NCBI GenBank assembly: GCA_030390025.1
Contig: CM059431.1
Location: forward strand, 149,112,001 to 149,176,000
From: Squalus acanthias
Lineage: Eukaryota
DNA: 64,000 nucleotides
Direction of reading: 5' to 3'
Shown here one piece after another: positions 12,282 to 64,000 of this stretch. Each line of letters begins with the position of its first letter. The first letter of the stretch is position 1. Under the pieces are notes generated by a model. The model had not been told where the DNA came from and did not search any database. It saw only the letters and a list, made by a program, of their open reading frames with translations. Position numbers and translations under genes: made by a program.

Positions 12282-13183
12282 TGAACTTAGTGACGATTGT
12301 GATCCTGTCTCAGGGAAAGTGCGGTCTCTCCAAATGTGTCACTCGGTACCTGGTGGCCATGGCAGCGGCAGATCTACTGGTCGTTATCCTCGATCTGATA
12401 CTGAGGCAGATTCCGATTGCTTATATGGAACAGTTTCTTTTCTTGAAGTCATTCCCCGTGTGCAATATCCACGCCGTCCTGCTTTATGCAGCCACGGACT
12501 GCTCTGTCTGGTTCACCGTCACTTTCACCTTTGATAGATTTGTGGCAATCTGTCGCCAGAAGCTGAAAACTAATTATTGCACAGAGAAATCGGCGGCTGT
12601 GGTTTTGGGAACAGTGACTGTGCTGAGCGGGTTAAAGAACATTTTCTGGTATTTTATGTTCAATGATCGGTATATACTTATGAACTTCCCCTGGTTTTGT
12701 GATGTAACAATCCGTGTTCTGTTTTCCCGGATCTGGGGAGCAATCGAGTTCCTTCATTATATTCTCACCCCGGGGATCCCGTTTGTTGTGATTCTGCTGC
12801 TCAATGCTGTCACCGTCAGACACATTTTAGTGTCCAACAGAGCCCGCAGGAGACTTCGGGGTCCCAGCAGTGGGGAGAGTCCCAGAGACCCAGAGATGGA
12901 GAGCCGCAGGAAATCCATAATTTTATTGCTTGTTATCTCCGGCAATTTCATCCTGCTATGGGCAGCTTTTACGGTGTTTGCTCTTTGGAACCGCATGTTT
13001 TTTCTGGGGTTTCGTAATATGGATCCACCTACTTTTTTACAGGAATTGGGATTGATGTTGCAGCTGCTGAGTTGCTGCACAAATACTGGGATTTATGCCT
13101 TGACCCAGACTAAGTTCAGAGAGCAGTTGAAGAACGTTGGGAAATATCTCTTCGCTCTGACTGTAAAATTCATTAAAAAATGA
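12282..13183 (+). CDS. Exon 2 of a class A orphan GPCR, GPR139/GPR142-like
   Basis: Acceptor ttcctcacag|TGAAC; open 300 codons; YLVAMAAADLL, TFDRFVAIC (DRY-like), LSCCTNTGIY (NPxxY-like); several hydrophobic segments. Confidence 0.88.
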
Positions 13184-19591: not shown

Positions 19592-19669
19592 GATGGGTGA
19601 TTCCCTGGATCCTTAGTTCCGAGTTCGTCCAAAAAGTTTGAGTGCGAAGTTTTTCAAAGTTGATTAAAT

Positions 19670-26959: not shown

Positions 26960-29030
26960 ACTCAGAAGTAGGAGAAAAAAGTGATAGAGTGAGAGTTAGA
27001 GAGACATAGAGCGAGGAACAGAGAGAGAGATAGACAGAGAGGGACAGCTAGAGATATTATGGAAAGCGAGAGAGACAAAGAGAGAAACATCCAGTGAGAG
27101 ACAGAGAAAGCGATACAAAAAGACACAGAGAGATCTAAAGGCAGAGAGAGAGTCAGAGAGGAGTGAGAGAGAGAGAGAGACAGACAAAGATAGATAGAGA
27201 TATAGAGGGAGGGAATGAAGCAGACATGCAGAGAATGGGATAGTAGAAAGTGATGGAGAGAGACAGAGACATAGAGACAATGACACAGAAAGACAGAGAA
27301 AAGCAAAGAGATAGACAGGAACAGAGACGAGGAGAGAGAGAGGGAGAGAGAAAGGGAGATAGGGAGAGGAGAGATAGACCGAGAGAGATTTGGAGAGACT
27401 TTAAAAAGGAGCGACAGGTTGTGAGAGACAGAGAAAGTGAAGTTGAAGCAGAGGGGATGCGATAGCGGGAGGCAGAGACATAAATAGCGATACATATTGT
27501 GAGAGGGAAAGTCAGAGCACTGGAGAGAGAGATGGAGTGACAGTGTGAGTGACAGCGACAAAGTTGGAGAGAGAGAGAGAGAGAGAGGGAGAGAGAGGCA
27601 AAGTAAAGACAGAGTGACAGAGAGAGGGGGAGAGAAGTAGATGGACAGATGGACAGAGTGAGACACAAAGTGAGACACAGAGTGAGACGCAGAGTGAGAC
27701 ACAGTGTGAGAACAAAGTGAGACACAGAGATACATAAAGTGAGACACAAAGTGAGACACAGAGTGAGACGCAGAGTGAGACACAGAGTGAGACACAGAGT
27801 GAGACACAGAGAGACACAGAGTGAGACACAGAGTGAGACGCAGAGTGAGACACAGTGTGAGACACAGAGAGACACAGAGTGAGACACAGAGTGAGACGCA
27901 GAATGAGACACTAAGTGAGACACAGAGTGAGACGCAGAGTGAGAAACAGAGAGATACAGAGTGAGTCATAGAGTGAGACAAATATTTAGACGCAGAGTGA
28001 GACACAGAGCGAGATGCAGAGTGAGACGCAGAGTGAGAGGCAGAGTGAGACACATAGTGAGACAGAGAGTGAGACACAGAGAGACACAGAGTGAGACACA
28101 GAGAGAGACATAGAGAGACACAGACAGAGACACAGAGTGAGACACACAGAGACACAGAGCGAGACACAGAGTGAGACACACAGAGACACAGTGAGACACA
28201 GAGTGACAAAGAGTGAGACACAGACACATAGAAGGGCAGAGAGAGAGAGACAGAGGAAGTGAAACAGAGGGAGCTAGAGAGACAGAGGGGGTAAAGTGGG
28301 AAAGACCGAGAGACCGAGAGAGAGAGACAGGAGAGAGTCTGAGCTACAGAGTCAGAAAGAGAGAGTGAGGGAAAGAGAGACAGACAGAAGAGGAATGCGA
28401 GAGAGAAGAGGAGAGACAGAGAGAATAGAAGACGATAGATATAGAGAGGGAGAGGGAGAGACCGGGATAGATTGAAAGAGACAAAGAGCGAGACAGGGAG
28501 AGCGGGATGCATAGAGACAGAGAGAGAAAGGGATATGGGAGGCAGAGACAAACAGAGGCTGGGAGAAACGGAGAGAGAGAGAGAGAGAGAAAATGAGAAA
28601 AGGGGGAGAGAGAGACAGATACACACAGAGTGATCAAATGAAAGGGGGAGACTGAGAGCCAGATAGAGAGAGAGAGAGCGAGGGAGACACAGAGAGAGAC
28701 GGAAAAGAGCAGAGAGAGCGTCGCAAAATGTGGAGAGAAACAGAGTGGAGTTCTGAAAACAACATTGACAGATTGAGAAAGATCGTGAGAAAACGAGAGA
28801 AAGATAGAAAGAGCAACGCTGTGAGATATTCAGGGACAGAGGGAGTGACTAAGTGACATTCAGAGAGGAAGAGGCAGATAGAAGGAGGGAGACAGAGGAC
28901 GAGAGGGAAAGAAGGACCTGCAGAGTGCGAGACAGAGAGAGAGGGTGTGACAGAGATAATGGGGAGATCGATGATAGCAGACAAACACGGAGTGAGATGC
29001 AGATTATAGACAGAGAGAGATGTGTTTCCC
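26960..29030. repeat. GA-rich low-complexity tract with a (GAGTGAGACACA)n 12-bp core
   Basis: Direct inspection; core at ~27650-28230. Confidence 0.95.
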
Positions 29031-42100: not shown

Positions 42101-45100
42101 ACACTATCAGGGACCACTTTTAAAGAGAGTGTCTTTCTATCAGGGACCCCTTTTAAGGAGGGAGACTCATCCTCGGGGACTCTTCTTAAAGAGAGAGTCT
42201 ATCTATCAAGGACCCCTTTTAAAGATGGAGTCTCCCCAATAGGGAACCCTTTTAAAGAGGCTCACCAGCAGGGACCCCTTTAAAGAGGGTGTTTCAGCAT
42301 CAGGGACTCCTATTAAAGAGGGAGTATCACCATCAGGGACCCATTTTAAAGAGACAGTCTCAACATATGGGACCACTTTTAAAGAGGGAGTCTCACCATC
42401 AGGGACCCTTTTTAAAGAGGGAGTCTCACCATCACGGACCCTTTTTAAAGAGGGAGTCTCACGCTCAGGGACCACTTTTAAAGAGGACGTCTTTCTATCA
42501 GGTACCCCAATTAATGGGAGAGTATCTCCACCAGGGACCCCATCACGGATCACTTTTAAACAGGGAGACTCACCGTCAGACACAATTTTAAAGAGCGAGT
42601 CTTTATATCAGGGACACCTTTTAAAGAGGCTCTCTCTCTATCAGGGACCCTTTTTAAAGAGGTAGTCTCACCATCAGGGTCTCCTTTTAAAAAGGGAGTC
42701 TCACCATCTGGGTCTCCTTTTAAAGAGGGAGTCTCATCATCAGTGTCCCCTTTTAAAGAGGGATACTTAACATAAGGATCCCCTTTTAAAGAGGGTGTCT
42801 CACCATCAGGGAGCCCTTTTGAAGTTATTTTTACCATCAGGGTCCCCTTTTAAAGGGGGAGTCTTAAGATAAGGACCCCTTTTAAAGAGAGGGTCTCACC
42901 GTCAGAGACCCTTTAAATGAGGTAGTCTTTCTATCAGGGAGCACTTTTAAAGAGGGAGTCTCACCGTCAGAGAACCTTTTAAAGAGGGAGTTTTTCTATC
43001 AGGTACCCCTTTTAAATAGGGTCTCACCCTTGGGGACACATTTTAAATACATTCTTACCATCAGGGACTCAGTTTAAAGAGAGAGTCTTTATATCATAGA
43101 CACCTTCTAAAGTGGGCGTTTTTCTATCAGACCCCATAAAGAGAGAGTCTCCCCATTAGGGACACTTTTAAAGAGGAAGCTCACCATCAGGGACCGCTTT
43201 TAAAGAGGATTTTTCAGCATCAGGAACTCCGATAAAAGAGAGAGTATAACACTCAGGGACCACTTTTAAAGAGGAAGTCTTTCTATCAGGGACCCCTTTT
43301 AAAGTGATTCTTACTATCAGGGACCGCTTTTAAAGAGGGAGTCGCCCCAACAGGGACCCGTTTTAAAGAGAGTTTCACCAACAGGGACCCCTTTTAAAGA
43401 GAGTGTCTCACCATCGGGGACCCCTTTTAAAGGGGGCCTGTCTCCATCAGGGTCACATATTAAAGAGGGTGTCTCCCCATCAGGGACACCTTTTAAAGAG
43501 GGTGTCTCCACATCAGGGACCCCCTTTTAAGAGGGACTCTCCCCAACAGGTACAACTTTTAAACAGAGTTTCAGCTACAGGGGCCCCTTTTCATGAGGGA
43601 GTCTCACCATCGGGGACCTCTTTTAAAGAGGGAGTCTCACCATAAGGTGTCCCTTTTTAAGAGGGAGTCTCACCATCAGGTACCCCTTTTAAAGGGAGAG
43701 TCTCAACTTTAGGGGCCCAATTAAAGAGGGAGTCTCACCATCAAGGGCCCATTTTAACGAGAGAGTCTCAACTTTAGGGGCCCAATTAAAGAGGGAGTCT
43801 CACCATCAAGGACCCATTTTAAACGAGAGAGTCTCCCCATTAGGGATCCATTTTAAAGAGGCAGTCTCTACATCAGAGACCCCTTTTAAAGAGAGAGTCT
43901 CACCATCCGGGTCCACTTTTAAAGAGGGCGTCTCACCATCAGGGACCTATTTAATAGGGGGAGTCATCATTAGGGACCCCTTCTAAAGAGAGAGTCTTTC
44001 TTTCAGGGACCCCTTTTAAAAAGGGAGTCTCACCCTCGGGGATTCTTTTTAAAGAGAGAGACTTTCTATCAGGGACCCCTTTTACAGATAGAGTCTCCGC
44101 ATTAGGGACACCTTTTAAAGAGGCTCACCATCAGAGATCACTTTTAAAAAGGGTGGTTAAGCATTAGAGACCCCTTTTCAAGAGGGAGTCTCACCATCAG
44201 AGACCCTTTTAAAGAGGGTGTCTTTCTATCAAGGACACCTTTTAAAGAGGGTGTCTCACCATCAGGGGCCCCCTATAAAGAGGGAGTCTCACCATCAGGG
44301 ACACATTTTAAAGAGGGAGTCTCACCATCAGTGGCCCATTTTAAAGAGGGAATCTCACCGTCAGAGACCTTTTTATAGAGGGAGTCTTTCTATCAGGGAC
44401 ACCTTTTAAAGAGGCTGTCTCACCATAAGGGTCAACTTTTAAAGAGGGAGTCTCACCATCAGGGGCCCATTTTAAAGAGACAGTATCAACATCAGGGACC
44501 ACTTTTAAAGAGAGAGTCTCAACATCAAGGTTCCCTTTTAAAGAGGAAGTCTTTCGATCAGGGAGCCCTTTTAAAGAATCGCTTACCATCAGCGATCCCT
44601 TTTAAAGATGGAGTCTTTCTATCAGGTACCCCTTTTAAATAGGGTCTCACCCTTGGGGACTCATATTAAAGAGATTCTTACCATCAGGGACCCTTTTTAA
44701 AGAGAAAGTCTCAAACTCAAGGACCCCTTTTAAAGAGGGTGTCTCACAATTAGGGACTCATTTTAAAGAGAGAGTCTTTATATCAGAGACACCTTTTAAA
44801 GAGGGCGTTTTTCTATCAGAGACCCCATAAAGAGAGAGTCTCCCCATTAGGGACACTTTCAAAGAGGAAGCTCACCATCAGGGACCGCTTTTAAAGAGGA
44901 TTTTTAAGCATCAGGGACTCCGATTAAAGAGGGAGTGTCACCCTCAGGGACCACTTTTAAAGAGGGAGTCGCACCATCAGGGCCCTTTTAAAGAGGGAGT
45001 CTTTCTATCAGGGACACCTTTTAAAGAGGGAGTCTAACCATCAGGGGCCCCTTTTAAAGAGGGAGTCTCACCATCAGTGTCCCATTTTAAAGAGAGAATC

Positions 45101-46749
45101 TGACCAACATAGACCCTTTTAAAAAGGGATTCTTTCTTTCAAGGACCCCTTTTAATGAGAGAGACTCCCCATTAGGGCTCCCTTTTAAAGAAGATGTCTC
45201 ACCATCAGGGATCCCTTTTAAATGGATAGTCCATCTATCAGAGAGTCCTTTTAAAGTGTTTCTTCCCATCAGGGACCCCTATTAAATATTCAGTCTCACC
45301 ATCAGCACCCATTTTAAAGAGAGCGTTTTTCTAGTGAGAGAGTCTCCCCCCATTAGGGACTCATATTAAAGAGGGAGCCTCTCCAGATTGGACCCCTTTT
45401 AAAGAGGGCGTTCACCATCAGGGAACCCTTTAAAAGAAGGAGTCTCACCATCAGGGACCTCTTTTAGCGAGAGTGCCTCCCCATAAGGGAACCCTTTGAA
45501 AGAAGCAGTCTCACAATCACCTTTTAAAGAGGGAGTCTCACCATAAGCGGCCGCTTATAAAGAGGGAATCTCACCATCAGGGACCATTTTAAACGAGAGT
45601 CTCTCCCCATTAGGGATCCCTTTGAATGAGGAAGTCTCACTATCAGAGTCCCCTTTTAAAGAGAGGCTCTCACTGTCAGGGACATATTTTAAAGAGGGTG
45701 TTTCAGCATCAGGGACTCCTATTAAAGGGGGTGTCTCACCATATGTGACCCATTTAAAGAGGGAGTCTGACCATCGGGGAAGCCCTTAAATGAGGGAGCC
45801 TAACCATCAGGGACCCCTTTTAGTGAGAGAGTCTCTGCAGAAGGGAACCCTTTTAAAGAAGCAATCTCACCATCAGAGATCTCTTTTAAAGAGGGTGTCT
45901 CACCATAAGGGACCCCTTTTAAAGCGGGTGCATCGACTTCAGGGATCCCTTTTAAAGAGAGAGTATATCCACTAGGGAGCCCTTTTAAAGATGGAGTCTC
46001 ACGATCAGGGACCCCTTTTAAAGAGGGAGTTTCACCATCAGGGACCTATTTTAAAGAGAGAGTCTTTCTATCAAGGACCCCTTTTAAAGAGGGCGTATTT
46101 CTATCAGGGACCCCTGAAGAGAGACCCTCCCCAGTAGGGACACTTTTAAAGTGGCAGACTCACCATCAGGGATCACTTTTGAAGTGGTTGTTTCAGCATC
46201 AGGTATTCCGATTAAAGAGGGAATCTCACCATCAGTGACCACATTTAAAGAGTGAGTCACTCCATCAGGGACCCCTTTTAAAGAGAGAATTTCACCATCA
46301 GTGTCCATTTTAAAGAGGGAGTCTTTCTATCAGGGGAGCCTTTTTAATTGCGTATTACCATCAGGGACCCCTTTTAAAGAGGTAGAGTCTTCTTCAGGGG
46401 CTCCTTGTAAAGAGGGAGTCTAAACATCAGGGCCCACTTTTTAAGAGGGAATCTCCCCAACACGGACCCCTTTAATAGAGAGTCTCACCATCAGGGGCCC
46501 CTTTAAATGCGGGAGTCTCACTATAAGGGGTCCCTTTTAAAGAGGACGTCTCAACATCAGAGAGCCCTTTTAAATGAGAGAGTCTCCACATTAGGCATCC
46601 CTTTTAAAGAGGAAGTCTCCCCATCAGAGACACCTTTTAAAGAGAGAATCTCACCATTAGGGTCCCCAATTAAAGAGGATGTATCCCCTTCAGTGACCAC
46701 TATTAATGAGAGAGTCGCTCTACCAGGGACCCATTTTAAAGAGGGAGCA

Positions 46750-47070
46750 ATACGGGGCAATACGGTGAAATAGTGGTTATCACTGTTGCCTCACAGTGCC
46801 AGGGACCCGTGTACGTATCCAGCCACAGGTGACCGTCAGTGTGGAGTTTGCACATTCTCCCCGTGTCTGCGTGGGTTTCCCCCGGGTGCTCCGGTTTCCT
46901 CCCACAGTCCAAAGATGTGCGGGTTAGGTTGATTTGGCTAAGATAAATTGACCCTTAGTGTTAGGGGGATTAAATACGTGGGGTTACGGGGATAGGCTGG
47001 GATATGTGTCGGTGCAGGCTCGATTTGCCGAAATGGCCTCTATCTGCACTGTGGAGATTCTGCGATTCTG
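46750..47070 (+). mobile_element. HE1-like V-SINE
   Basis: tRNA head tagtggttatcactgttgcctcacagtgccagggaccc; V-domain gtggagtttgcacattctccccgtgtctgcgtgggtttcc...cccacagtccaaagatgtgc; CR1-type tail. Confidence 0.88.
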
Positions 47071-47992
47071 ACCATCAGGTACCCTTATCAGAACGGTGTC
47101 TCAGCATCTGGTACCCCTTTTAAAGAGGGAGTCTTTCTATCAGGGACCTCTTTTAAAGAGGGAGTCGCACCCTCGGGAACGCATTTTAAAGAGAAAGTCT
47201 ATCTATCAGGGATCCCTTTTAAAGACTCGTCTTTCTTTTAGCGAATCCTTTTAAAGAGAGATTCCACCCTATAGGAACAACTTTTAAAGAGGCACTCTCA
47301 CCATCAGGGACACCTTTTGAAGCGGGTGTTTCAGCATCAGTGACTCCTATTTAAGAGGGAGTCTCAACATCAGGGAGCTCATTTAAAGAGGGAGTCTTTC
47401 TATCAGCGAGCCCTTTTAATGTTAGTCTTATCATCAGGGACCCAGTTTTAAAAAGTGAGTCTCAAAATCAGAGATCCATTTTCAAGATGAAGTGAGTTTC
47501 ACCATCAGAGATCCCTTTTAAAGAAAGAGTCTCTCCATCACGGACCCCTTTTAAAGAGGGTGCTTAGCCACAGGGACCCCTTTTGAAGAGGGTGTCTCCC
47601 CATCCGGACCCCTTTTTAAGATGGAGTCTCCCCAATAGGGACCTCTTTTAAAGAGGGAGCCTCTCCATCAGGAACCCCTTTTACAGAGGGAGTCCCACCA
47701 TCAGGGACACATTTTAATTAGGGCGTCTCCCGATCAGGGACCCCTTTTAAAGAGAGAATCTCCCCATTGGGGACGCGTTTTAAAGAGGATCACCATCAGG
47801 AAACCCTTTTGAAGGGAAAGTTCACCTTCAGAGACAACTTTTAAAGATACAGTCTCACCATCAGGGATACCTTTTGAAGATGAAGTCTCACCGTCAGAGA
47901 CCCTTTTAAAGAGGAAATCTTTCTATCAGGGAAACCTTTTAAAGAGGGTGTCTCCCCATCAGGGACCTTTTTAAAGAGGGAGTCTTTCTATC

Positions 47993-48522
47993 TGAGGAAG
48001 GATGTTCTTGCCATGGAAGCAGTTCAGCGAAGATTCACAAGGCTGATACTATGGGATTGCAAGAATGACATATGAGGAGAGATTGGCTCGATTGGGCTTA
48101 TACTCGCTGGAGTATAGAAGAATGAGAGGGGATCTCATCGAAACATATAAAATTCTGACAGGTCTGGACAAACTAGATGCAGGAAGAATGTTCCCGGTGG
48201 TCGGAGAGTCCAGAACCAGGGGTTATAATCTAAGGATAAGGGGTAAGCCATTTCGGACAGAAATGAGGAAGAATTTCTTCACCCAGAGAGTGGTGAACCT
48301 GTAGAATTCTCTACCACAGAAGGTAGTTGAGCCCAAGTCATTAAAAATATTCAAGAATGAGTTAGATATCTTTCTTAAAGCTAAAGGTATCATGGGAGAT
48401 GGGGAGAAGGCAGGTAAAGGGTACTGTGTTTGGATGATCAGCCATGATCTCATCGAATGGCAGAGCAGGCTCGAGGGGCCGAATGGCCTACTCCTGCTCC
48501 TATCTTCTATGTTTCTATGTTT
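47993..48522 (+). mobile_element. 5'-truncated CR1 (same subfamily as 41656-42100)
   Basis: YEERLARLGLYSLEYRRMRGDLIE; (TTCTATGT)n tail. Confidence 0.9.
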
Positions 48523-49042
48523 AACAGCGAGCCATTTTAATGTGAGTCTTACCATCACGGACACCTTTTAAAGATGGAGTCTCAACATATAGAAACCTTT
48601 TAAAGAGGGAGTCTCAACATCAGGGACAGCTTTTAAAGAGTGAGTCTCTTTATCAGAGACCCTTTTAAAGGGGGAGTCTTTCTATCAGGGTGTCCATTTA
48701 AAGAGAGTTTTACCATCCGGGACCAGTTTTAAAGATGGAGTCTCACCATCAGGGATCCTTTTTGAAGAGAGCGTCTCAACATCAGGGACCCCTCTTAAAG
48801 AGCGAGTCTCACCACCAGGGACCACTTTTAAAGAGAGACTATCTCCATTAGGGATCACTTTTAAAGAAGAAGTCTCACCATCAGGGATCCCTTTTAAAGA
48901 GGGAGTCTTTCTAACAGGGAGTCCTTTTAAAGAGGGAGACTCACCATCAGAGGCCCAATTAAAAAGTGAGTCGCAGCATCAAGGACTCCTTTTAAAGTGG
49001 GTGTAGCCCCTTCAGGGACACATTTTAAGGAGAGAGTCTCTC

Positions 49043-50329
49043 TGAAGCGATAATTATTAGTCCTGGCCCCTTTAGGGCTACCCCGGATCAGGCGTATTCC
49101 CCAGACGTTCACTTTCAACTGAAGTTTGAGGTAGCCGAATTCTAAAGACGCTTAATTGGGTCTTAAGGTCCAAACTAACTCTCCCTAAAGGAAAGGAACA
49201 ACCTAAAGATGTTACCGTCCTCCAGATAGCACTTTTAATACGTTTAGCTAACCTGTAATATTCTGGATATTATGAGGGTCCGGAAAACTCCCTCAGAATT
49301 CTGCAACTCCTCACCAAAGAGTGTACAGAGATTCAGTTTGCGGATTTGATACAGAAATACTATTTTAGACAATTCTAACAATATATAGATTTATTAAAGA
49401 ACCGACATGGAATTTACAGTTGGAGATTCAATCGCAACATTAACAGTTCCAAAAACAGAAATCTTACAATTCTATTATCAGAGATCCTCATTCTCAAATC
49501 TTAAAATCGCTAGTTTTACATTTCTTAGTTTATTCCAAAATATCCACCAAGATACAAAGATTTGTAGACTTACAGAGCCTGCCTCTGAAGCCGAGAATCG
49601 CGTTGCCCCTTTACACCGAATCTATCATCCCATTTGAAAATCTAATTTTTATACTCCTTTTCAGTGGTATTTCCTTTGAAGTTTTCTGCTGATGTAAGCT
49701 AATTATCGCTAGTCATTTTTCTGTTGACCCCTGCGATTCTTACAGTCAGTTTAGCTGGTAGCAAGCAGACTCGTGTCTCTCCTTTATGTGTTCGAGGCTT
49801 ATCTTAAAAACGATGTGACCAGCTGGTGCAGCTATTTGATGTCATTTTTACCCAGGTCTTCTATGCAATTCATAAGTCACCTCAGTTGTTTGCAACACAG
49901 AATCGTGTCTCCTAGGTGTTCGATTTTCAACACAAAAACAATGTGACGGCTGATGCCTTACCAAATTGATGCCATTCCCACGAATGCATATGTTTCTTAA
50001 TTTTCTGTGATTCTTTTTATGTCATTTTTACGAAGACATATGTTTCTTCTTTTTTTGTGTATTTCTTTCCAAAGAGTTATTTAAGACACCTTAACAGTGT
50101 ATACCATTGTGTTCTTTCCAAGCCTTCAGACTTCAGGAACCTTTAACCTTCTGTTTCAACAAGGCTATTGATTCAGTTTCAAAAACTTTTCTTATCTCAA
50201 TAGCCTGTATACTGTTTACAGCTTTTCCATTGTTAGTGTTTTTGATTTTCATCCCAGTTTGTCATGTTACAAAGGCCAGAATATTAAATAGAATTATGTA
50301 TTTTTCTGAAAAAGGCTTATTCCTTCACA
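49043..50329 (-). repeat. ERV 3' LTR (1287 bp)
   Basis: Diverged direct repeat of 56327-57640; PPT AAGAGTGGGG on the minus strand at 50330-50339. Confidence 0.92.
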
Positions 50330-50557
50330 CCCCACTCTTGACCAAACAATGTACTCAATACATTAGGGCACAGTTTGCTCAATATTACAAATATGGTTAC
50401 AATAGGACATTAATTTCACGAAATTCACAAGAGCCTTATCATGTGTTACATGAAAATTCCTTTTAAGTCATCCTAGTACAATGTTTTGCCTTATTTTAAA
50501 TTGAACACAATTTAAAAGGATGATAGGTACATTGTCATGTAATTAGCGAAACCACAT

Positions 50558-53500
50558 TTACTTAGAATTATCAATCAGCAGATGTACGTTCCCTAGAGGT
50601 GAGTTATTCATACGAGTCAAGGAGATGTCCTTTGGAACTAGCTGGAGCTTGACATGCTGTTCCTTCGAACCAATGTGTGGACATATTGTTGTTTTCGTAA
50701 AGGCCTTGCCAGGCGCTCTGTTGATTCCTTCTTCATCCACAGTGTCTTCCTCCTTCGTTGAAGCTACTCGTTGATCTTTCCTTGTTTCGGTATTGGCTTT
50801 TTGCGAATCCAATTCCTGAGGTGTTGCCAAGCATCGTGTGGAGGAGTCGTTGACATCATCTGACTGACCGTCGTTAGTAGTTTGATCGCATCCATTTCCT
50901 GTGTCGTGCTCCAAGCTGGGTCTTGAAAGATAGTGTACGACTGCACCTTGTATTATTCCTCCATTTCGGTATCCGGCAAGACATCTTTTGAGATTGTCTA
51001 TGCAGACAGTGTTAAGAATATGCTTGCTATTCGGCTGATTAATATGTATTTTAACTGTTCTTTCATTAATAACAGTAGGTATTTGAACAGGTTTTTCCAC
51101 TTCGGTCTTAAACCAGGTTTTTGCTTGAACCTCTTTTCCTGTACCTATTCTCCTACGAGGGGTTCCATGCTTTGTTTGTCAATTTTTTCTGCCTATTTGC
51201 CTCCTTTATCCTCTGATCAATTTGATGAGTCACCTCTGTTACTTCTTTTTTCAAATCAAATGTCGCTGTAGGGTCGAGGACTCAGAGAGTGCAGCAGCAA
51301 TAAAAGAACTATGGGCAAGCGGTGTATTCTTCTCAACTCCATACATCAGATAATATGGAGTTTTTGGGGACACTGTCCCTGATACAGATGTGGGTACATT
51401 ATTAAGTGATAGCTGCACCTCCAGAATGAAGGTGGTCCACTTATTTCCCCTGATTCTCAACAGTTTGACAAATAGCTTTTTTACTTCCTGTTTTTTACGT
51501 TCCAGCAGCACCGCTGATTGCGGATGACGTGGCGTGCTGTGCTCTAACTCAATCCCCCTTCGTTCGCAGTAGTCTTTGAAGACCTTAGAGACAAAGGCTC
51601 CGCCTTGAACGGAGTGTAAGATTTTGGGTGCACCAGCTACAGTAATTATGTCAGAAATATTCTTGGCTAGTGCGTTATCCAAAACAGTTTTTGTGGGGAT
51701 CAGCCTGCATAAGGAAGTGCATCCATCTGCACAATTTAGAACATGTCTGTATCCCAAAGACGGGGCAAGTAGTCCAATAAAGTTAATAAAGAATTTTCCG
51801 ATTGGCTCATCAGCTTTCACAGGAGCCAATGGTGGTGGCTTAATTAGTGATGACATGTTGGTTAAAAACCGTGGCTCACAATTTGTCCCGTATGTTTTAC
51901 AGGCCTTAAGCATGCCTGGCCACCAATATAAGGGAGTCAATTTGCGGAATGTTGTTCTGGGACCACAATGTGCTTGACCTATGCCCTCGTGAGCATCTTT
52001 TACAAGCAGTTCTCGTTTGTGTATCGGGGGTACTTCTCTGGTGCCCTTTGGCAACATAACTAGCTCAATACCCTTAGGGGTTTCCGAGTAAAATCCTGGT
52101 GGATTCTCTTTTGTTGGGTCTAATAGCGGAATCAATTCCTCATCCTGATTAGCTGCCCGTTCTGTCCTAGTGATTATACTAATATTGTCAGTCCCCTCTC
52201 GAGGGGGTGTCATGCAGAAAGAACATTTTGCTTGTTCGTCTGCAAGGCTGTTTCCTTTTGCGTGTACTGTCCCAGTAGTATGCCCGTTTACATGAACCAC
52301 CTGACAAATCTGTTTCTCCATTCTCGAATGGAGAATGTCTTCCCACAATGAATTATGTTTTATGGGTTAACCCTTATGATTGGTAAAATTTATTTGATCC
52401 CAGAAAAATAGATCTTGGTTATATCCTCTTTCACAGTAGTCACTATCCGTACAGATTAGTATGGGTTGAATGGGGTCTGCCTTTTCTAAAGCATACAGTA
52501 ATGCTGCGGCTTCAGCATATTGCGCTGTCTTATAGCCAAGTGGTATGGACAGTAATTCTTCTGGAGAAAAAGAATAGGAATCCCGAAAAGTACCTACTAC
52601 TATCCCCATCCCAGCTGAGGATTGTTGGGATGTCCTTGTTCAATCGTCATTGAAGATCCATCACAGTAATGACTTGATGGATCTCTGTAAGCGGTCTCAT
52701 AGGTATTTGTCTGATTCCCACCTCCGTATCATTATCCTCCATGATGGGGAGATCCTCTCATTCCATTTCCGGGGAGAGGAATTTAAAAATGAGTGTAGGA
52801 TCATTCAAGAACGATTCGCATTTATTATATCGGATGTGGCTGGCTCTTTTTTTCATCAGAGGCCATCCTCAATACTGATCTTAAATCGGGAATCTCAGTA
52901 TAGATGGAGCACGGGCTATTTTCCTTGAAGGGACCGTGCCTTGATGAGGCATTAGACTGGAATAGTCATGACCCTTTTCTTTTTTAATGTACCTCCTTTC
53001 GACATTGGAAAAGTTATAAGAATGGAATTGAAGAGCACTATGATATTTTCATTATAGAAAACTGCAACTGACACTTTAGGGGATGAACTGAGATGAATAT
53101 TGAGGGGAATTGTAAGTCCCTCTGTTCCAGGTCTATGGCTTTTTGTACCTCTCGGCATAATTGTTGCAATTTTGAGTAATCGTCTGCTGAAAATATGAAT
53201 GGCCCTTTTGCTGCTTCGCCCACTCCAGCATACAGGGGTGCTGAGAGCTCGGCAAAGGTTGTCGTAAAGGATCGCGCAAAATTCTGGTGTTCTAAATTTG
53301 CTTGCAGATTTTTCATAATTTTAGGATATTGAATGGTGGCTAATGTTTCTTTATAGGATTGAGTTAATCCTCTTCTGTTTCCAGTTATTCGCAGGCTCAG
53401 AAAATCTACCTCTTCCCTAACTAGTTAATTCTTTTTTATGTTGATCATGTACCCAGCAGTTGTAAGTCGAGATAACACATTATCAATGGCTTTCAAGTGT

Positions 53501-54517
53501 TCCTGGAGATTGCCATGTGACAGGTATATATCGTCCACATAATAATTGACGTTAGGTAGGTCTTTAAAAGGTCAATGATGTGGGCTGAAAACAGAACGGG
53601 ACTGCTTTGAAAAACCTGGGGCAATCTGGTCCAGCAATACAGATAACCATCGGGTCTAGTCATCGCTGTTTTTGGCCAATCAGCTTTTTCGATTGGATGT
53701 GGCCAGAAGCCGTTTGCTAGATAAATACAAGATTTATATTTTTCGCTCATGATTCCAGAGAGAAGGGCTGTGGAATTTTGCTGTTGTGCAGTATGTGGGG
53801 CAATTACCTTACCTAAGGCTGAATAATTGACCACTAATCTCCACATCCCATCTGGTTTAGCAACACCAAACAATGGTGAATTAGTTCAAGATGCCATTTT
53901 GATTAAGACATCTTGTTCTGTTAGTTCTTTGAGCGTTGTTAGGAGATCTATTTTTCCTTTGTGGTCTTGAATAAGCCACTGTATTTTAGGTTTGTGCCAG
54001 CCAGCATCAAGTGGGTGGGGTTTGATATCTATCTTTCCACATTGATTTGGATGACTTTGTAGATACGGGTCGTATCTATAAATGAGTTGCTCGAGGAGAT
54101 CTTTGCATCCCCCTCTAGGCAAGTTTGTTCAAGCTGTGTCCGAAAATGTTTTCCGTTGTCATCCTTGTCTGTGGATGCTTCAACAGGTCTGGTTGAGATT
54201 TTAAGGTAATGTTTCATGTCTGGTTGTCCTATTATGAGGGAACAGGCCAATTGTGGTACCAGTCCGACATCTAGGGTCACCATGATTCCATATATGATAA
54301 CAGGTATTATGTAAAAAAATAATTAGTCTAGTGTGAATCCCCCTAATGGTCTTTTACAAATTGGGCACCCCAAATCTGTCCACCAAGTTTTTATAATTGC
54401 AGCATCTATTACAGTGTAATCAGATCTCGTATCAAACAGGGCCTTCACTTGTGTGTTTGTGGGCAAGGTTGCCAGGGCATAGGGGAATTCAAGAGGTCCT
54501 GGCCGCGTGCCAGGCCT
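50558..54517 (-). pseudogene. pol: Foamy-like pol (PR-RT-RNase H-IN), multiple stops and frameshifts
   Basis: KALFDT(R)S protease; KPDGMWRLVVNY, NGFWPHPI, WTRLPQ, YVDD (53530-53541); TAQYAEAAA, TDSDY, GNSLADEQAK; KFFINFIGLLAPSLGY, PKILHSVQGGAF, STPRHPQS, RPKW...TVCIDNLK. Confidence 0.92.
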
Positions 54518-56063
54518 TCAATCCTGGGATTGATCATCCTCAGATTCCTGAGTTTCATTTGCTGCTGTGACTTTAATTATTTTAACTGATTTTTGTTCCT
54601 CCCTCTTGGGGGTTTCATGTTTTCCAGATCCCTCAGGTGGTTTGTCGGACCGTTTATTATCTTGACGATACTCCTGTTAGTTTGGACTTTGGTTCTGCCA
54701 GGAATCTTTTTGATCGCCATTTCGGATTTCCCTTTATCCTCCCATGGCTCTTTGATAACTTTGGCCAGTGTAAAAGCTGTCCCCAGTGGGACTCACTTTC
54801 TTTCGCTTTCCTTTCGAGCTCTAGCCCCTCATCTATCCCATCTTTATGGGGAGAATTTTTTCTCGTAGAGTTGGCGGGTTGGGGTTGTAAATCTTCTGGA
54901 ATACCCTCTTGGGGGTCCCGTGCCACGAGTTTGTGTCTGGGCGGGGTGGACTTGCTTCTGTGTACCAAAGGTACCATCTCGGTTTTGTTTACACCTAATT
55001 TCTGATCTCATTATAGGTTTAGATTGGGGTAGACCTAAGAGATCATGATTTAATTGGATAATGCGATTGACGTTATCCCATCTTTGTTTATTATCTCGAT
55101 AATCGATTACAGCACCGTCACAGGCATGTTTGAGGGCTGTATTTTGTTATTGATTGGCCAGGCAACCATGGACAATATCCCAGTTATCCTGTGTAATTAC
55201 TTTGCCTAATCTGTAGGCGGCTACCAGCCCTTTAGTTGTGGCTGTATTAGTGAGTTTTTCCTTGATGGAACCCATTATATGCCCTCCCTGAGTTGCCGTG
55301 AGAACATATTTGAACCCCGTTGTTACACTGGTTTAATGCGGGAATTAAGTCTGAACTTGGTATCATTTGCATTATTTGCCTCAGGTGTTGGGCATTCCAA
55401 ACTTGGCAACAGTTTTTCCAATTTATCAAGGTTAGTTAGAATCCAGCAGATTTTTTCCTGGCTGGTTTTCCCCAGTCTACCACACATCGTGTAGATAGAT
55501 CTCAGGTTAATTGAACTAGGGGCGCAATGTGTGGTTGCTTGTGTTGGCTTACTGGACCAGTAATCATTGAGCCTCTAGCATTTAGATAAGATTGCGCTAG
55601 TGCCAGTCGGCATTGATTATAATGGATTCTATGCTGTCTATAGTTTTCTCGAAGATTCTGGTCATTTATTTCATCATGAGCTTGCCACCTTAACCGGAAT
55701 CCATGGCCTCGAGGACCATAGCCTGCTCCGGGTCCTACTCTTCGGCCATGGTTGCCAACACCTTTTTGTGCACCATTCATTAGGCCTCCCAATTGTATGG
55801 ATGTGCACCTTATCATTAAGGAATTTAGTAGATTTGGAGTAATAGTTTGATTATCCCACCGGATATTCTGTATCCCCTGGTTCTGGGGATTAACATCAAT
55901 CGTGCCATGAGTTCTAACGGCTCCGTCGGCATCAAAGCCTTCTATTTCAAAAATTATCACTTGGATTTGTGGAGGTACAGGGATAGCATTATTTTCCCCG
56001 AAAAAAGCAATTGTTTGAATTTCCTAATAAAAAGTCTTGGCCAATTCCGACAGGGTTTGCCAT
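54518..56063 (-). pseudogene. gag: Foamy-like gag, degenerate
   Basis: Candidate ATG at 56063; KLTNTATTKGLVAAYRLGKVITQDNWDIVHG resembles the foamy CA helix region; HDLLGL (55030-55047) matches the YxxLGL motif; no CCHC knuckle. Confidence 0.78.
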
Positions 56064-56306
56064 TTCATCAGGACCTAACCTCGGTTAGGGTGTAATATGA
56101 AATTTATCCGAAATGTCTAGACCTCAATGGTATATTGAGGGAGTTCTGATTTACGTTCTACAAGGCCTGATCAGGTAATTATCATCTCGAGAGACTTAAA
56201 TCTGCGTCTTAATACCACTGTCAGTAAAACACTCCTTCTATACTTAACAATCTACAAGATGGACATATATATAAATATAAGTATAGCTTCTGTATCAACT
56301 CGTTAA

Positions 56307-56324
56307 CACACAGGTTGGGCGCCA
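56307..56324 (-). promoter_or_regulatory. Primer-binding site, tRNA-Lys1,2 type
   Basis: TGGCGCCCAACCTGTGTG, 2 nt after the 5' LTR; first 11 nt match the foamy PBS TGGCGCCCAACGTGGGGC. Confidence 0.85.
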
Positions 56325-56326
56325 AC

Positions 56327-57640
56327 TAAAGTGATAACTACTAGTCCTAGCCCCTTTAGGGTAACCCCGGAGCAGGCATATTCCCCTGATGTTCACTTTC
56401 AACTGAAGTTTGAGGTAGCCGCATCCTGAAGACGCTTAATTGGTTCTAAAGGTACAGACTATCTCTCCCTAAAGGAAAGAAAAAACCTGAAGATGTTACC
56501 GTACTCCAGATAGCACTTTTAATAAGTTGAATTAGACTGTAACAATCCGGATAATCATGAGGGTCCAGAAAACTCCCCCAGAATTATGCAACTCCTCACC
56601 AAAGAGTGCACAGAGATTGAGTTTGCGAGTTTGATACAGAAGTACTATTTGAGACATTTCGAAAAAATATATAGATTTATTAAAGAACCGACATGTAATT
56701 TACAGATGATGATTCAATCGCCAAATTAACAGTTCCAAAAACAGAAATATTACAATTCTATTATCAAAGATCCATATTCTCAAATCTTAACTTCTCTAGT
56801 TTTACATTTCTTAGTTTATTCCAGGATATCCAACAATATCAAATACAAGTACCTTGATCCCCGAGATACAAAGAGTTGTAGACTTACAGAGCCTGCTTCT
56901 GAAGCCGAGGTTAGCTTTGCCCTTTACAGCGAATCTATCATGCCATTTGAAAGTCCAATTTTTATACCCATTTCCAGTGGTATTTCCTTTGAAGTTTCCT
57001 GCTGATATAAGCTAATTATCTCAAGTAATTTTCCTGTTAACCCCTGCTATTCTTATAGTCAGTTCAGCTGGTAGCAAGCACACTCGTGTCTCTCCTTTAA
57101 GTGTTCGAAGCTTATTACAAAAGCGATGTGACCAGCAGGTGAATATATATGATGTCATTCTTACCAAGGTCTTCTATGCAATTCTTAAGTCACCTCAGCT
57201 GGTTGCAACATAGAATCGTGTCTCCTAGGTGTTCCAAGTTCAACACAAAAACAATGTGACGGCTGGTGCCTCCCCCACCTGATGCCATTCCCACGAAGGC
57301 ATATGTTTCTTAATTTTCTGCGATTCTTTTGACGTCATTTAAATGAAGGCATATATTTCTTCTTCTTTTATGTGTGTCTTTCGTAAGTGTTATTTAAGAC
57401 ACCTTAACAGGGTAGACCATTGTGTTCATCCCAGGGCTTCAGAGTTCAGGAACCTTTAACCTTCTGTTTCATCAGGGCTATTGTTTCAGTGTCAACAACT
57501 AATCATATCTCAATAGCCAGTATTGTGAACAGCTTGTCCATTGTCAGTTTTTTAGGTTTTCATGGTCAGTTTGTAATGTCACATAAAAAGAATATTTCAT
57601 AGAATGGTTTATTGTTCAGATTATGGCTTATTCCTTCACA
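56327..57640 (-). repeat. ERV 5' LTR (1314 bp) with TATA (56959-56966), GTAAGT donor (56882-56887) and AATAAA (56815-56820, 56676-56681)
   Basis: Direct repeat of 49043-50329; all these motifs are present in both LTRs. Confidence 0.92.
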
Positions 57641-57699
57641 TCTCCACGAGGGACCCCTTTTAAAGAGAGAGTCTCACCGTCAGAAACCCTTTTAAAGAG

Positions 57700-58205
57700 C
57701 GGACAACGAAAAATCGTCTAGCAGAAACTGATAGCCAAGTTCCGCACCCATGAGGACGGCCTCAACCGGGATCTTGGGTTCATGTCACGCTACAATATAA
57801 CCCCACCTGACGAAGAGTCATCCAGACTCAATCCGTCTCTCCACATAGATGCGGCCGGACCTGCTGTGATTTCCAGCAAAAAACGTTTTTTGTTTTCCAT
57901 AAAGACCCCAGCATCTGCCACATTTGACCCCTTGTGACACCACATCATTGTCTTTGATGTAATGTTTTCCTGACTGTACTGTTTGGACACCATCCACACC
58001 TGTGATTGCCGTGATTACCTCTCTGCCGAGGTGTGATAAAGGGCAGTGAGAAAGATTAACTGTAATCATCTGGCAGTGTTCTCTGATTATATATGCTGTG
58101 CCTATATGCATCTCTTCACTCCTCCTGACGAAGGAGCAGCGCTCGAAAAGCTTGTGATTTCAAATAAAGCTGTTGGACTATAACCTGGTGTTGTGCGACT
58201 TCTCA
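57700..58205 (+). mobile_element. Penelope-like element 3' end with nested remnant and hammerhead-like cores
   Basis: QKLIAKFRTHEDGLNRDLGFMSRY (GIY-YIG end); CTGACGA-AG-GAGC-AGC-GCTC-GAAA at 58125-58148; aataaa-ctgttggactataacctggtgttgt-like tail. Confidence 0.8.
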
Positions 58206-59234: not shown

Positions 59235-59355
59235 GCCGCTCCGACTGTGCAGTGCTCCATCAGTACTGCCCCCGCCCCCTCAGTTCTGCCCCTCCGACAG
59301 TGCAGAGCTCCCTCAGCACTGCCCCTCCGACAGTGCATCACTCCCTCAGCACTGT
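59235..59355 (-). repeat. Deu-SINE-derived 33-bp tandem
   Basis: Reverse complement of the gtactgagggagcgctgcactgtcggagggg unit. Confidence 0.75.
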
Positions 59356-60510
59356 TTAGATACAGTGTAGAGCTCCCTCTACATTACCCTGTCTGTGTGT
59401 CCCCCACTTAATACCCAGTGTCAGCATCGAGTGCTCCCGGGGCAGGTACAGCACGTGTTAGGTACAGTGTAGAGCTCCCTCTACATCACCCTGACAGTGT
59501 TTCCCCACTTTATATCCAGTGTCAGCATCGAGCGCTGCCAGGGCATGTACACCCCAGGTTAGATACAGTGCAGATCTCCCTCTACATTAACCTGAAAGTG
59601 TATCCCCGACTTTATATCCAGTGTCAGCATCGCGCGCTCCCAGGCAGGTGCAGCACGGGTTAGATACAGTGTAGAGCTCCCTCGACATTACCCTGTCAGT
59701 GTGGCCCCCACTTTATACCCAGTGTCAGCATCGAGCGCTCCCAGGGCAGTACAGCACAGTTTAGATACAGTGTAGAGCTCCCTCTACATTACACTGACAG
59801 TGTGTTCCCATTTTATACCCAGTGTCAGCATCGAGTGTTCCCAGGGCAGGTACAGCACGGGTTAGATACAGTGTAGAGCCCCCTCTACATTAACCTGACA
59901 GTGTGTCCCACACTTAATACCCAGTGTCAGCATCGAGCGCTCCCGGGGCAGGTGCAGCACGTGTTAGGTACAGTGTAGAGCTCCCTCTACATCACCCTGA
60001 CATGTTTCCCCACTTTATATCCAGTGTCAGCATCGAGCGCTGCCAGGGCAGGTACACCCCAGGTTAGATACAGTGCAGATCTCCCTCTACATTAACCTGA
60101 AAGTGTATCCCCGACTTTATATCCAGTGTCAACATCGAGCGCTCCCAGGCAGGTGCAGCACGGGTTAGATACAGTGTAGAGCTCCCTCTACATTACCCTG
60201 TCAGTGTGGCCCCCACTTTCTACCCAGTGTCAGCATCGAGCGCTCCCAGGGCAGTACAGCACAGTTTAGATACAGTGTAGAGCTCCCTCTACATTACACT
60301 GAAAGTGTGTTCCCATTTTATACCCAGTGTCAGCATCGAGTGCTCCCAGGGCAGGTACAGCACGGGTTAGATACAGTGTAGAGCCCCCTCTACATTAACC
60401 TGACAGTGTGTCCCACACTTTATAAACAGTGTCGGCATCGAACGCTCCCAGGGCAGGTGCAGCAAGGGTTAGATACAGTGTAGAGCTCCCTCTACATTAC
60501 CCTGACAGAG
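59355..60510. repeat. ~101-bp minisatellite with a ~505-bp higher-order repeat
   Basis: 101-bp period at 59761/59862; diagnostic variant ACCCCAGGTTAGATACAGTGCAGATCT at 59551 and 60056. Confidence 0.9.
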
Positions 60511-61139
60511 TGCCTTGCACCTTGTTAAAGACAGGAGTCCCGGACAAATGAATTTGCAAGTCGCTGATTGAGAGATGGCGATGCAACTCCGGCAATGTTT
60601 TTGAACTGAACACGATAAATCAACGACTTTCAGGTGATATGAATGTTATTTTATTGCACACATCTGGTACGGACTGACCATATAACTCTTTATTCATTGA
60701 CATGAACATATTACAGCCGTCACACAGTCTAATTCCATTGATAAACCTCGGACACTGGAGAGGGTTCAGTGAGAGCAACATTCACAGATAAAGTGCAGTT
60801 AAAGTCACAGGCCACCAGGGCCAGAGGTCAAACTCCTCTATCTGGGGTGGGTGTTGGGGAGAGGCTGTGGTTTGGGGAGATGGGGTGACTGAAGCTCCCC
60901 GCTCCCCCCCACCCCCGTCCCAAGGAGCTTTATTCGGGCAGCCTGGAATATCTTCGATCGGTTTGGAATCCCGCTCATGTCCCGATCAGATCCGTTTCGC
61001 GCTTTCATCTCCGGGCGGTCGGTCAAAGATTCGGTTTGCTCGGGAGCTCCAGGCCGGAACAGTGCATCACCCCTCCCCTCTCCCCGCCAGCACAACACGA
61101 GAGGACGGGGATGGAAGGATGTGCGAGGCTGACAGGGCC

Positions 61140-61699: not shown

Positions 61700-62372
61700 A
61701 TCCCACTTTATACCCAGTGTCAGCATCGAGTGCTCCCAGGGCAGGTACAGCACGGGTAACATACAGGATAGACCTCCCTCTACATTACCCATGAAAGTGT
61801 GTCCCCCTCTTTATACCCAGTGTCAGCATCGAGCGCTCCCAGGGCAGGTACAGCACGTGTTAGGTACAGTGTAGAGCTCCCTCCACATCACCCTGACAGT
61901 GTTTCCCAACTTTTTCCCCAGTGTCAGCATCGAGCTCTCCCGGGGCAGGTACAACACACGTTAGATACAGTGTAGAGCTCTCTCTACATTTCCCTCACAG
62001 TGTGTCCCACACTTTGTACCCAGTGTCAGCATCGAGCGCTCCGAGGGCAGATACAGCACGGGTTAGATACAGTGTAGAGCTCCATCTACATCACCCTGAC
62101 AGTGTGCCCCCCACTTTATACCCAGTGTCAGCATCGAGCGATCCCAGGGCAGATACAGCCCTCTTAGATACAGTGCAGAGCTACCTCTACATTACCCCAG
62201 ACAGAGTGTCTCCCACTTTATACCCAGTTTCAGCTTTGTGCGCCCCCAGGACAGGTACAGCACGGGTTAGATGCAGTGTAGAGCTCCCTCTACTTTACCC
62301 TGACAGTGTTTCCCCACCTTATACCCAGTGGCATCATCGAGCACTCCCAGGGCAGGTAGAGCAGGGGTTATC
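61700..62372. repeat. ~101-bp minisatellite, second block
   Basis: Same unit as 59355-60510. Confidence 0.9.
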
Positions 62373-63559: not shown

Positions 63560-64000
63560 TAGCAGTCACTGGGATTCACTCTACCATCGGATTCAAAATT
63601 TCGTGTTTCGAGCCCACAATCCTAGGCCTACACTGCCCCTGGATGCAAGTGCTGAGGGAGCGCTACACTATCGGAGGGGCATAACTGATGGAGCGCTGCA
63701 CTGTCGGAGGGGCAGTACTGAGGGAGCGCTGCACTGTCAGAGGGTCAGTACTGAGGGAGCGCAGCACTGTCAGAGGGTCAGTACTGAGGGAGCGTTGCAC
63801 TGTCAGAGGGGCAGTACTGAGGGAGCACTGTAATATCAGAGGTTCAGTTCGGAGGGAGCGCTGCACTGTCGGAGGGGCAGTACTGAGTTAGTCCAGCACT
63901 GTCAGACGGGCAGTACTGAGGGAGCGTTGCACTGTTGATGGAGCAGTAATGAGGGAGCACTCCAGTGTCGGGGAGCAGTAATGAGGGAGTACTGCAGTGT
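63560..64000 (+). repeat. SacSINE1-like head followed by an expanded 33-bp tandem (GTACTGAGGGAGCGCTGCACTGTCGGAGGGGCA)
   Basis: About 10 tandem units, running to the window end. Confidence 0.85.

Follow-up and report, generated by a model that had tools for sequence, protein, structure and literature searches.

The case that retroviruses arose in the sea in the Palaeozoic rests mainly on foamy viruses, whose record is thinnest in cartilaginous fish. Foamy-like endogenous retroviruses (ERVs) of fish, cartilaginous fish included, are already established; the published chondrichthyan record that we found consists of a chimaera pol and one catshark family lacking recognizable Gag or Env. For CmiFLERV of Callorhinchus milii, the available sections of the accounts (PMC5512871, PMC4422223) report that only pol was detected (Aiewsakun and Katzourakis 2017), and Han (2015) describes Callorhinchus ERVs. 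ERV-Spuma.0-Sca of Scyliorhinus canicula numbers 293 elements, groups with teleost foamy-like ERVs and, so far as the available text states, has no detected Gag or Env domain (Song et al. 2023, PMC10699275); the available sections of PMC8227577 contain no shark foamy virus. Here we analyze an element at positions 49043-57640 of a 64,000-bp stretch of the Squalus acanthias genome (contig CM059431.1, positions 149,112,001 to 149,176,000; hereafter the window). In our view the element is likely a provirus, inert and lacking env by deletion, of an endogenous foamy-like (Spumaretrovirinae-like) family, of which an env-deleted lineage spread in the germ line.

The replication of foamy viruses gives this loss of env a particular interest. 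According to the available text of PMC3185757, foamy virus budding depends strictly on Env, reverse transcription is completed in the producer cell, and env-deficient constructs of prototype foamy virus (PFV) reintegrate in the same cell (Heinkelein et al. 2000, as cited there). In other ERV families, loss of env accompanies high copy number, and such families have been called "superspreaders" (Magiorkinis et al. 2012, as cited in PMC4643047). We propose, tentatively and at somewhat less than even odds, that the shark lineage is undescribed, that it has the full foamy gag-pol-env, with a Pol nearer the mammalian foamy viruses than the salamander or chimaera sequences, and that one env deletion made of it a self-propagating retrotransposon of hundreds of copies. 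If so, it would be the first case in nature to parallel the intracellular retrotransposition that env-deficient PFV shows in culture, and would hint either at foamy viruses crossing between vertebrate classes or at several lineages that split before the classes did.

Identity of the element and its family

The element (8,598 bp, coding on the minus strand; Table 1) is bounded, as a preliminary description made from the sequence had stated, by two long terminal repeats (LTRs) of about 1.3 kb. They appeared as direct repeats at approximately 49042-50329 and 56326-57640 before refinement, and their ends are TGTG...CA, the terminus of the 5' LTR now being TA. The 4-bp target-site duplication (TSD), TCTC, could be checked against the 33-bp satellite into which the element is inserted, and which resumes to its right for about 60 bp (57641 to ~57700). 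The TTTTAA motif of the satellite recurs at a spacing of 33 when the element and one TCTC are excised, of 37 when both copies are kept, and of 29 when both are removed. Because excision with one TCTC restores the 33-bp register, and two random satellite 4-mers would agree by chance with a probability of 0.010, the TSD is real; it is established for the window copy alone. A 4-bp spacing is that of the foamy integrase, and gammaretroviruses have 4 bp too.

The primer-binding site (PBS) and polypurine tract reported earlier were both recovered. The PBS core, TGGCGCCCAAC (56314-56324), lies 2 bases past the 5' LTR. In an env-bearing copy of the family the PBS reads TGGCTCCCAACGTGGGGC, of which the window copy retains the first 11 bases. 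Its 15-nt complement occurs 280 times in the genome, versus 0 for the reversed control, and forms the 3' end of a tRNA-Lys(CTT) gene in 3/3 host loci examined, in agreement with the proposed Lys1,2 primer.

A 2.6-kb pol probe applied to the 3.7-Gb host assembly gave 581 first-look candidates; the 40 that were scored contained 47 matches at 84-100% identity, the long ones at 90-92%. The window copy is one of hundreds rather than a lone relic. The naturally open 1,153-aa frame of one sister locus, unmended, served as the main Pol query. Its matches to Pro-Pol of macaque, other simian, and human-derived foamy viruses have E-values of 6.6e-223 to 1.4e-209 (38-39% identity over 92-93% of the length), and that to feline foamy virus (FFV) 1.5e-204 (37% identity); foamy matches overall span 92-94% of its length. 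Then come P0010, a 1,687-aa protein (4e-178), a newt protein (2e-83), and Ty3/gypsy sequences (from 3e-51). A HMMER search of 1.84 billion representatives gave 700 bits for the mammalian foamy cluster and 613 bits for P0010, with everything else at or below 380 bits. Pfam recognizes Spuma_A9PTase (26.3 bits; cut-off 21), RVT_1, RNase_H, Integrase_H2C2, rve, and SH3_11 in the sister Pol, and the D, D, and E of its integrase are all in place.

A phylogeny was built with IQ-TREE (LG+C20+F+G4 by posterior mean site frequencies; 32 rows, 1,092 columns) from the family Pol, four mammalian foamy viruses, P0010, newt, salamander, Pelodytes frog, Callorhinchus, Scyliorhinus torazame (only the reverse transcriptase [RT] part, the gene model having a PRDM domain joined to it), two teleost-associated proteins, proteins of Xenopus and other frogs, four MLVIN_C-type or allied retroviral Pols, mite and unnamed sequences, and six Ty3/gypsy elements. 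The family Pol falls inside a foamy/foamy-like clade of 15 rows supported at 100/100. Within it lies a 9-row clade (96/96) that joins the family Pol to the mammalian foamy viruses (simian foamy virus, PFV, and FFV), Pelodytes, P0010, and the S. torazame fragment, the last being its sister (90/74). The salamander clade, Callorhinchus, and the teleost rows lie outside this subclade, the teleost rows being basal and apart, and the Ty3/gypsy rows lie outside the retroviral clade (100/100). Forcing all tetrapod foamy sequences into one clade lowered the log likelihood by 12.1, with p = 0.044 in the approximately unbiased test. Because this value is borderline and the hypothesis was framed after the tree had been seen, we do not claim that the shark lineage is nested among tetrapod foamy viruses, as the topology may suggest.

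Gag of the sister copies is essentially one frame of approximately 480 codons that begins MANPVG. Gag_FV_central scores 38-53 bits (cut-off 30) in 4/4 central Gag segments of the sisters, and one N-terminal segment has no Pfam match. The preliminary description had noted a Gag with HDLLGL and without a zinc knuckle; indeed, no CCHC knuckle is present in the gag region of any of the four copies examined, whereas the control, a Ty3-type open reading frame (ORF) in the same window, has two. HDLLGL occupies residues 104-109 of a segment whose residues 6-110 fit positions 63-167 of the 173-position Gag_FV_central profile, that is, the C-terminal end of the central domain, which we take to be where the foamy YxxLGL motif also sits. 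In the C-terminal half of one sister Gag segment the R+G fraction is 0.2-0.3 per 30 aa, with no defined GR boxes aligned. In copies C18 and C548 the pol frame opens approximately 60 nt past the gag stop, in a different frame and with no overlap, an arrangement that argues, at the level of sequence, against expression by frameshifting.

Several observations weigh against this assignment. The protease motif is DTAAD in the sister and DTRSD in the window copy rather than DSG, and no ATG precedes it in the pol frame of C18 or C548. The Gag_FV_central match of the window copy reaches 24.4 bits, under the cut-off of 30. One degraded env-bearing copy has no sense ORF of at least 90 aa (tas/bet-like) between env and the 3' LTR; accessory genes are a mark of the complex foamy viruses of mammals, and the wider foamy-like clade is not defined by them. 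Finally, the tree places the family Pol in the foamy clade and is otherwise a partial test of the alternatives, having been run without a named ERV-L, lokiretrovirus, epsilonretrovirus, or lentivirus; its non-foamy retroviral sister clade is formed by MLVIN_C-bearing and unnamed amphibian sequences.

The element might be taken for an env-less class III (ERV-L-like) or Ty3/gypsy element with foamy resemblance in its integrase only, since the window copy has no env, its gag match is below the Pfam threshold, and no named ERV-L sequence was in the tree. Class III elements are ancestrally env-less, carry a dUTPase in pol, and have a tRNA-Leu PBS. The present family differs on each count: a Foamy_virus_ENV gene is present at its sister loci, no dUTPase domain is matched in the sister Pol (Pfam), and the PBS fits tRNA-Lys, not Leu. 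It differs likewise from Ty3/gypsy (Metaviridae) elements in its Pol, which lies outside the Ty3 rows, themselves outside the retroviral clade, and in its knuckle-free Gag. With Gag_FV_central and Spuma_A9PTase above cut-off in sister copies, and nothing but foamy viruses and P0010 above 380 bits, this alternative is already largely refuted, and we regard it as very improbable. Similarity, phylogeny, and the foamy-type protease, Gag, and Env of the sister loci all favor the foamy-like identity first proposed from the window copy.

Env loss and spread of the env-less form

The internal region of the window copy is only about 6 kb long, and the polypurine tract comes almost straight after the end of the integrase. 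At this junction some 30 bp stand where an env-bearing sister, L019, has approximately 3.2 kb containing Foamy_virus_ENV; mapped in detail, position 4874 of L019 corresponds to element position 6952 and position 1706 to element position 6983. The "provirus with intact termini" of the preliminary description therefore needs qualification: LTRs, TSD, PBS, and polypurine tract are present, but the copy is an env-deleted derivative and not a whole provirus. Across the junction, each of the 11 sisters sampled is collinear with the window copy. The three copies that were completed are 5'-truncated, interrupted, or partly deleted in an LTR.

Foamy_virus_ENV (PF03408) was found at 11 places in the genome, all over the cut-off and up to 87.8 bits. 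At the four of these loci that were fetched, pol is 83-89% identical in DNA to that of the window element and, piece by piece, 65-95% identical in protein to the sister Pol. The two forms differ greatly in abundance. A 401-bp probe across the junction gave 493 first-look candidates, and all 40 that were scored span it end to end at 89-100% identity; when all 37 candidates given by an env probe were scored, 8 loci proved to have substantial env, the remainder being pieces of at most 300 bp from one short stretch. In a tree of pol DNA, a branch marked 100* divides 12 env-less copies, arranged as a star, from 4 env-bearing ones. This combination of a shared junction, a copy-number contrast, and a well-supported branch indicates that env was deleted once and that the env-less lineage is the one that multiplied.

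With codons read as in the open sister copy, pairwise Nei-Gojobori dN/dS comes to 0.31 for env-less versus env-bearing copies (44 pairs) and to 0.32 among env-bearing copies (6 pairs); it is 0.54 among env-less sisters (55 pairs) and 0.85 between the window copy and its sisters (11 pairs). By these ratios, pol was under purifying selection while the lineages diverged.

We suggest the following course of events. The family encodes a foamy-type Gag and Pro-Pol and, in about 8 loci, Env, and one lineage lost about 3.2 kb of env. Because foamy budding needs Env and reverse transcription precedes exit from the cell, env-less capsids, unable to bud, would return reverse-transcribed DNA to the nucleus. 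The env-deleted genome could then have spread inside germ-line cells by intracellular retrotransposition. The window copy landed in the 33-bp satellite, was copied later with its flanks by segmental duplication, and has since decayed.

The main rival to this scheme is trans-complementation, in which env-bearing members of the family, expressed alongside, packaged the env-deleted genomes and supplied them with Env, so that these re-infected germ-line cells. The data fit cis retrotransposition and packaging by an env-bearing helper alike, and this counts against the scheme just given, as do the bias of the 11 sisters, which are best-scoring matches, toward young copies and the roughness of the copy numbers, which are first-look junction candidates of which only 40 were scored. 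Potential helpers coexist in the genome in the env-bearing copies, whose pol is 83-89% identical, and they may have been active together with the env-less form, the LTR pairs of env-bearing copies (3.1-3.2% mismatches) being no older than that of an env-less copy (4.7%). Env-less copies nevertheless exceed env-bearing loci by tens to one, and env-deficient foamy virus is reported, in the available text of PMC3185757, to retrotranspose without a helper. Neither counterpoint is decisive; we judge trans-complementation unlikely, and prefer intracellular retrotransposition of the env-deleted genome.

Comparing env-less with env-bearing copies gives a way to test, in nature, whether the replication strategy of foamy viruses favors spread in the manner of a retrotransposon. 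The env-less "superspreader" ERVs (IAP-type) show a similar pattern of a single env loss followed by copy numbers far above those of env-bearing relatives; they are mammalian gamma- or beta-like ERVs, whereas the spread in cis proposed for the shark family is deduced from its genomic copies. Env-deficient PFV is the same type of virus, and its intracellular reintegration has been seen in culture, but it is a laboratory construct. In a full-text search of the literature we found no natural foamy ERV that is env-less and amplified.

One stretch of the env probe has a distribution of its own. Approximately 250-300 bp (query 1295-1590; L019 ~3067-3362, C20 copy) are found, detached from the remainder of env, at over 20 additional loci, where identity is 88-97%. 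A small mobile insertion in that env could account for this, as could the dispersal of a fragment by some other element.

Decay and age of the window copy

The long retroviral ORF fragments of the window copy all lie on the minus strand. Among 16 minus-strand window ORFs, Pfam recovers Spuma_A9PTase (22.5 bits; cut-off 21) as well as RVT_1, RNase_H, Integrase_H2C2, and rve. The six peptide strings quoted in the preliminary description are all present (Table 1), and the likeness of its integrase to that of PFV is borne out by comparison of a 371-aa ORF with the PDB (PFV integrase, E = 1e-53; Ty3, 1e-9; HIV-1, ~1e-3). Mapping against the naturally open frames of sister copies shows that the pol frame shifts no fewer than 4 times and that the four main segments of pol contain at least 13 in-frame stops; in gag, the N-terminal segments show a frame change and 1 stop, and the C-terminal one contains 4 in-frame stops. 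RT retains YVDDIYLSH; the first two catalytic aspartates of the integrase are now N (within KFFINFIGLLAPSLGY) and V. With its reading frames all lost and two of the three integrase catalytic residues gone, the window copy is inert. An index of sequencing runs listed no RNA run for it, and no run there contained more than 0.15 of the words sampled.

The two LTRs of the window copy differ at 168 of 1,284 aligned sites (p 0.131; Kimura two-parameter distance 0.144), with 7 indel events in addition; the differences comprise 71 transitions and 97 transversions. About 12 differences were counted by eye in the last 80 aligned columns, consistent with the 18 per ~134 nt counted earlier and read then as the mark of an old insertion. 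Taken alone, this divergence corresponds to 72 million years at 1e-9 substitutions per site per year, or to 144 million years at 0.5e-9, the rate assumed for cartilaginous fish in the available text of PMC10699275.

It is questionable whether the LTRs can be read as a clock in this way. Private changes in 2.6 kb of pol number 119-124 (5.6-5.7%) in the window copy, versus 17-43 in each of the 11 sisters; when the tree is rooted on the env-bearing copies, the window copy joins the star of the sisters on a stem of only 0.00076. The partial LTR pairs of three other copies differ by 3.1-4.7% (env-bearing 3.1-3.2%, env-less 4.7%).

A sequence 88% identical to the right flank of the element lies ~479 kb off on the same contig, at L038 (G000:C7:149637000-149650811). 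Since L038 is collinear with the window over both flank-LTR junctions, it is the same insertion carried by segmental duplication. The duplicated locus comprises satellite, element, and right flank (window 46000-59320) at 86-90% identity, and L038 has an additional deletion of ~1.3 kb that removed part of the 3' LTR and the region upstream. At the 2,212 pol sites on which the 11 sisters agree, 32 changes (15 transitions, 17 transversions) are common to the two copies, 89 are found in the window copy alone (transitions:transversions 36:53), and 96 in L038 alone (31:65). The pooled ratio of the other copies is 248:168 (Fisher p 0.0014 for the window copy and 1.4e-6 for L038). That two independent lineages in the satellite neighborhood decay alike, and with an excess of transversions, points to a regional, transversion-rich, and probably faster mutational regime, possibly tied to the 33-bp satellite. 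If the window copy shares the burst of its sisters, this regime inflates the LTR date by up to 4-5 fold.

The alternative is that the window copy is truly ancient, its 13% LTR divergence reflecting roughly 70-140 million years. The 168 differing LTR sites, the excess of private pol changes over any sister, and the small LTR divergence of the three other copies would all follow. A neutral source persisting between the old and the young dates, however, should leave a stem of about 4% rather than 0.00076, and the ratios of 36:53 and 31:65, against 248:168, point to a different mutational regime. Great age combined with a static source may also be compatible with the data of the window copy. We think a truly ancient insertion rather unlikely and favor accelerated regional decay. 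The excess of private changes, the short stem, the younger LTR pairs elsewhere, and the fast-decaying duplicate together make the LTR clock doubtful here, so that of the "old insertion" the 13% divergence is real and the reading of age is unsafe. LTR-divergence dating may err several-fold in other satellite-embedded regions as well.

The env-bearing copy L025/L026 (G000:C6:123316000-123332000) is also 5.7% privately diverged in pol, and a cause shared with the window copy was considered and rejected. Its changes are transition-rich, it has no satellites, and its LTRs are only 3.1% apart; its divergence therefore predates insertion, and it is a distinct viral sub-lineage of the family and not an older insertion.

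Described relatives and other features of the window

The shark family resembles the mammalian foamy viruses in most of its organization. Pol is 37-39% identical over 92-94% of its length and has the same order of domains, including the A9 protease and the SH3-like C-terminus of the integrase, and YVDDIYLSHD is identical to that of PFV. The Gag central domain, the lack of a Cys-His box, the C-terminal part of Gag (R/G-enriched in one sister segment), the foamy-family Env of sister loci, the tRNA-Lys(CTT) PBS, the 4-bp TSD, and LTRs of more than 1 kb are likewise shared. The shark family is unlike them in being endogenous, with most copies env-less; in a shorter Gag of roughly 480 codons, that of PFV having ~650; in the lack, in the single env-bearing copy examined, of a tas/bet-like ORF of at least 90 aa between env and the LTR; and in its DTA rather than DSG/DSQ protease motif and its YxxLGL-like motif, HDLLGL.

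With the described chondrichthyan elements the family shares a host class and a Pol in the foamy-like clade, and the catshark family is likewise multi-copy. A C. milii protein, 35% identical to the family Pol, branches outside the 12-row clade to which the family belongs. Unlike ERV-Spuma.0-Sca, the shark family stands apart from the teleost rows and has recognizably foamy Gag and Env; identity with ERV-Spuma.0-Sca is unlikely by its published description, which is the basis of this comparison. The nearest named relative of the family Pol is the RT fragment in the S. torazame gene model, at 41% identity. Full-text search, supplements and published sequences aside, turned up no published selachian foamy lineage in which Gag and Env are foamy, and the earlier suggestion of an undescribed shark lineage holds to that extent, the published chondrichthyan elements being different. 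It is the env-loss expansion and the closeness to mammalian viruses that add interest to the family. With foamy Gag, Pol, and Env it provides three alignable genes for deep phylogeny, through which co-divergence and transfer across classes become testable.

The S. torazame gene model itself (P0155), which joins the RT part to a PRDM PR/SET domain, is probably a chimera created by annotation, combining an ERV fragment with a host gene.

Table 1. Features of the element and of the surrounding window (window coordinates; the function of the polypurine tract is inferred from sequence)
Feature	Position	Strand	Remarks
33-bp satellite array hosting the insertion	44003..49042		resumes right of the element
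TSD, left copy TCTC	49039..49042		satellite register test
Element	49043..57640	minus	8,598 bp
3' LTR	49043..50329	minus	1,287 bp, terminus ...CA
Polypurine tract AAGAGTGGGG	50330..50339	minus	directly upstream of 3' LTR; read from sequence
env-deletion junction	50658..50689	minus	~30 bp; ~3.2 kb with Foamy_virus_ENV in L019
Broken pro-pol	50927..54517	minus	A9-type protease, RT, RNase H, integrase (H2C2, core, SH3-like C-terminus)
TVCIDNLK	50987..51010	minus	integrase string
RPKW	51097..51108	minus	integrase string, frame shifted locally
Integrase ORF	51251..52366	minus	371 aa
STPRHPQS	51515..51538	minus	integrase string
KFFINFIGLLAPSLGY	51749..51796	minus	integrase string
YVDD	53530..53541	minus	RT motif
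Broken gag	54580..56081	minus	no CCHC knuckle; weak Gag_FV_central match at 55147..55332
HDLLGL	55030..55047	minus	Gag string
PBS, tRNA-Lys(CTT)	56307..56324	minus	14/18 positions match by eye, first 11 intact
5' LTR	56327..57640	minus	1,314 bp, begins TGTG
TSD, right copy TCTC	57641..57644		satellite register test
GPR139-like receptor gene	12245..13183	plus	intact, intronless
Ty3/gypsy-type polyprotein	15962..19612	minus	1,216 aa, open
Open frame	26962..28848	minus	628 aa, no Pfam match
0.55-kb repeat	47990..48540		within the satellite
101/102-bp tandem repeat, first array	59347..60512
101/102-bp tandem repeat, second array	61702..62370
Separate 33-bp repeat	63648..64000		unrelated to the satellite around the element

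The window contains several features besides the foamy-like element. The Ty3/gypsy-type polyprotein, which comprises protease, RT, an RNase H-like domain, and integrase together with two CCHC knuckles, looks like that of a young LTR retrotransposon. The 0.55-kb repeat within the satellite has 4,774 first-look candidates in the genome at 96-97% identity and is a young, very abundant short element. The two arrays of the 101/102-bp tandem repeat have 82-85% matches. The 628-aa open frame lies in a purine-skewed stretch, with a GC skew of approximately +0.3 and an AT skew of approximately +0.35 over 26-30 kb. Of mitochondrial COX1 the assembly contains only degraded nuclear copies. The receptor gene encodes a rhodopsin-family G-protein-coupled receptor (Pfam 7tm_1) with 2,316 relatives at E <=1e-20 and no exact match in the protein collection; the 120 matches listed, 53-78% identical, belong without exception to Heptranchias perlo, Pristiophorus japonicus, or Heterodontus francisci, which marks the host as a shark and suggests that this GPR139-like family is hugely expanded in sharks.

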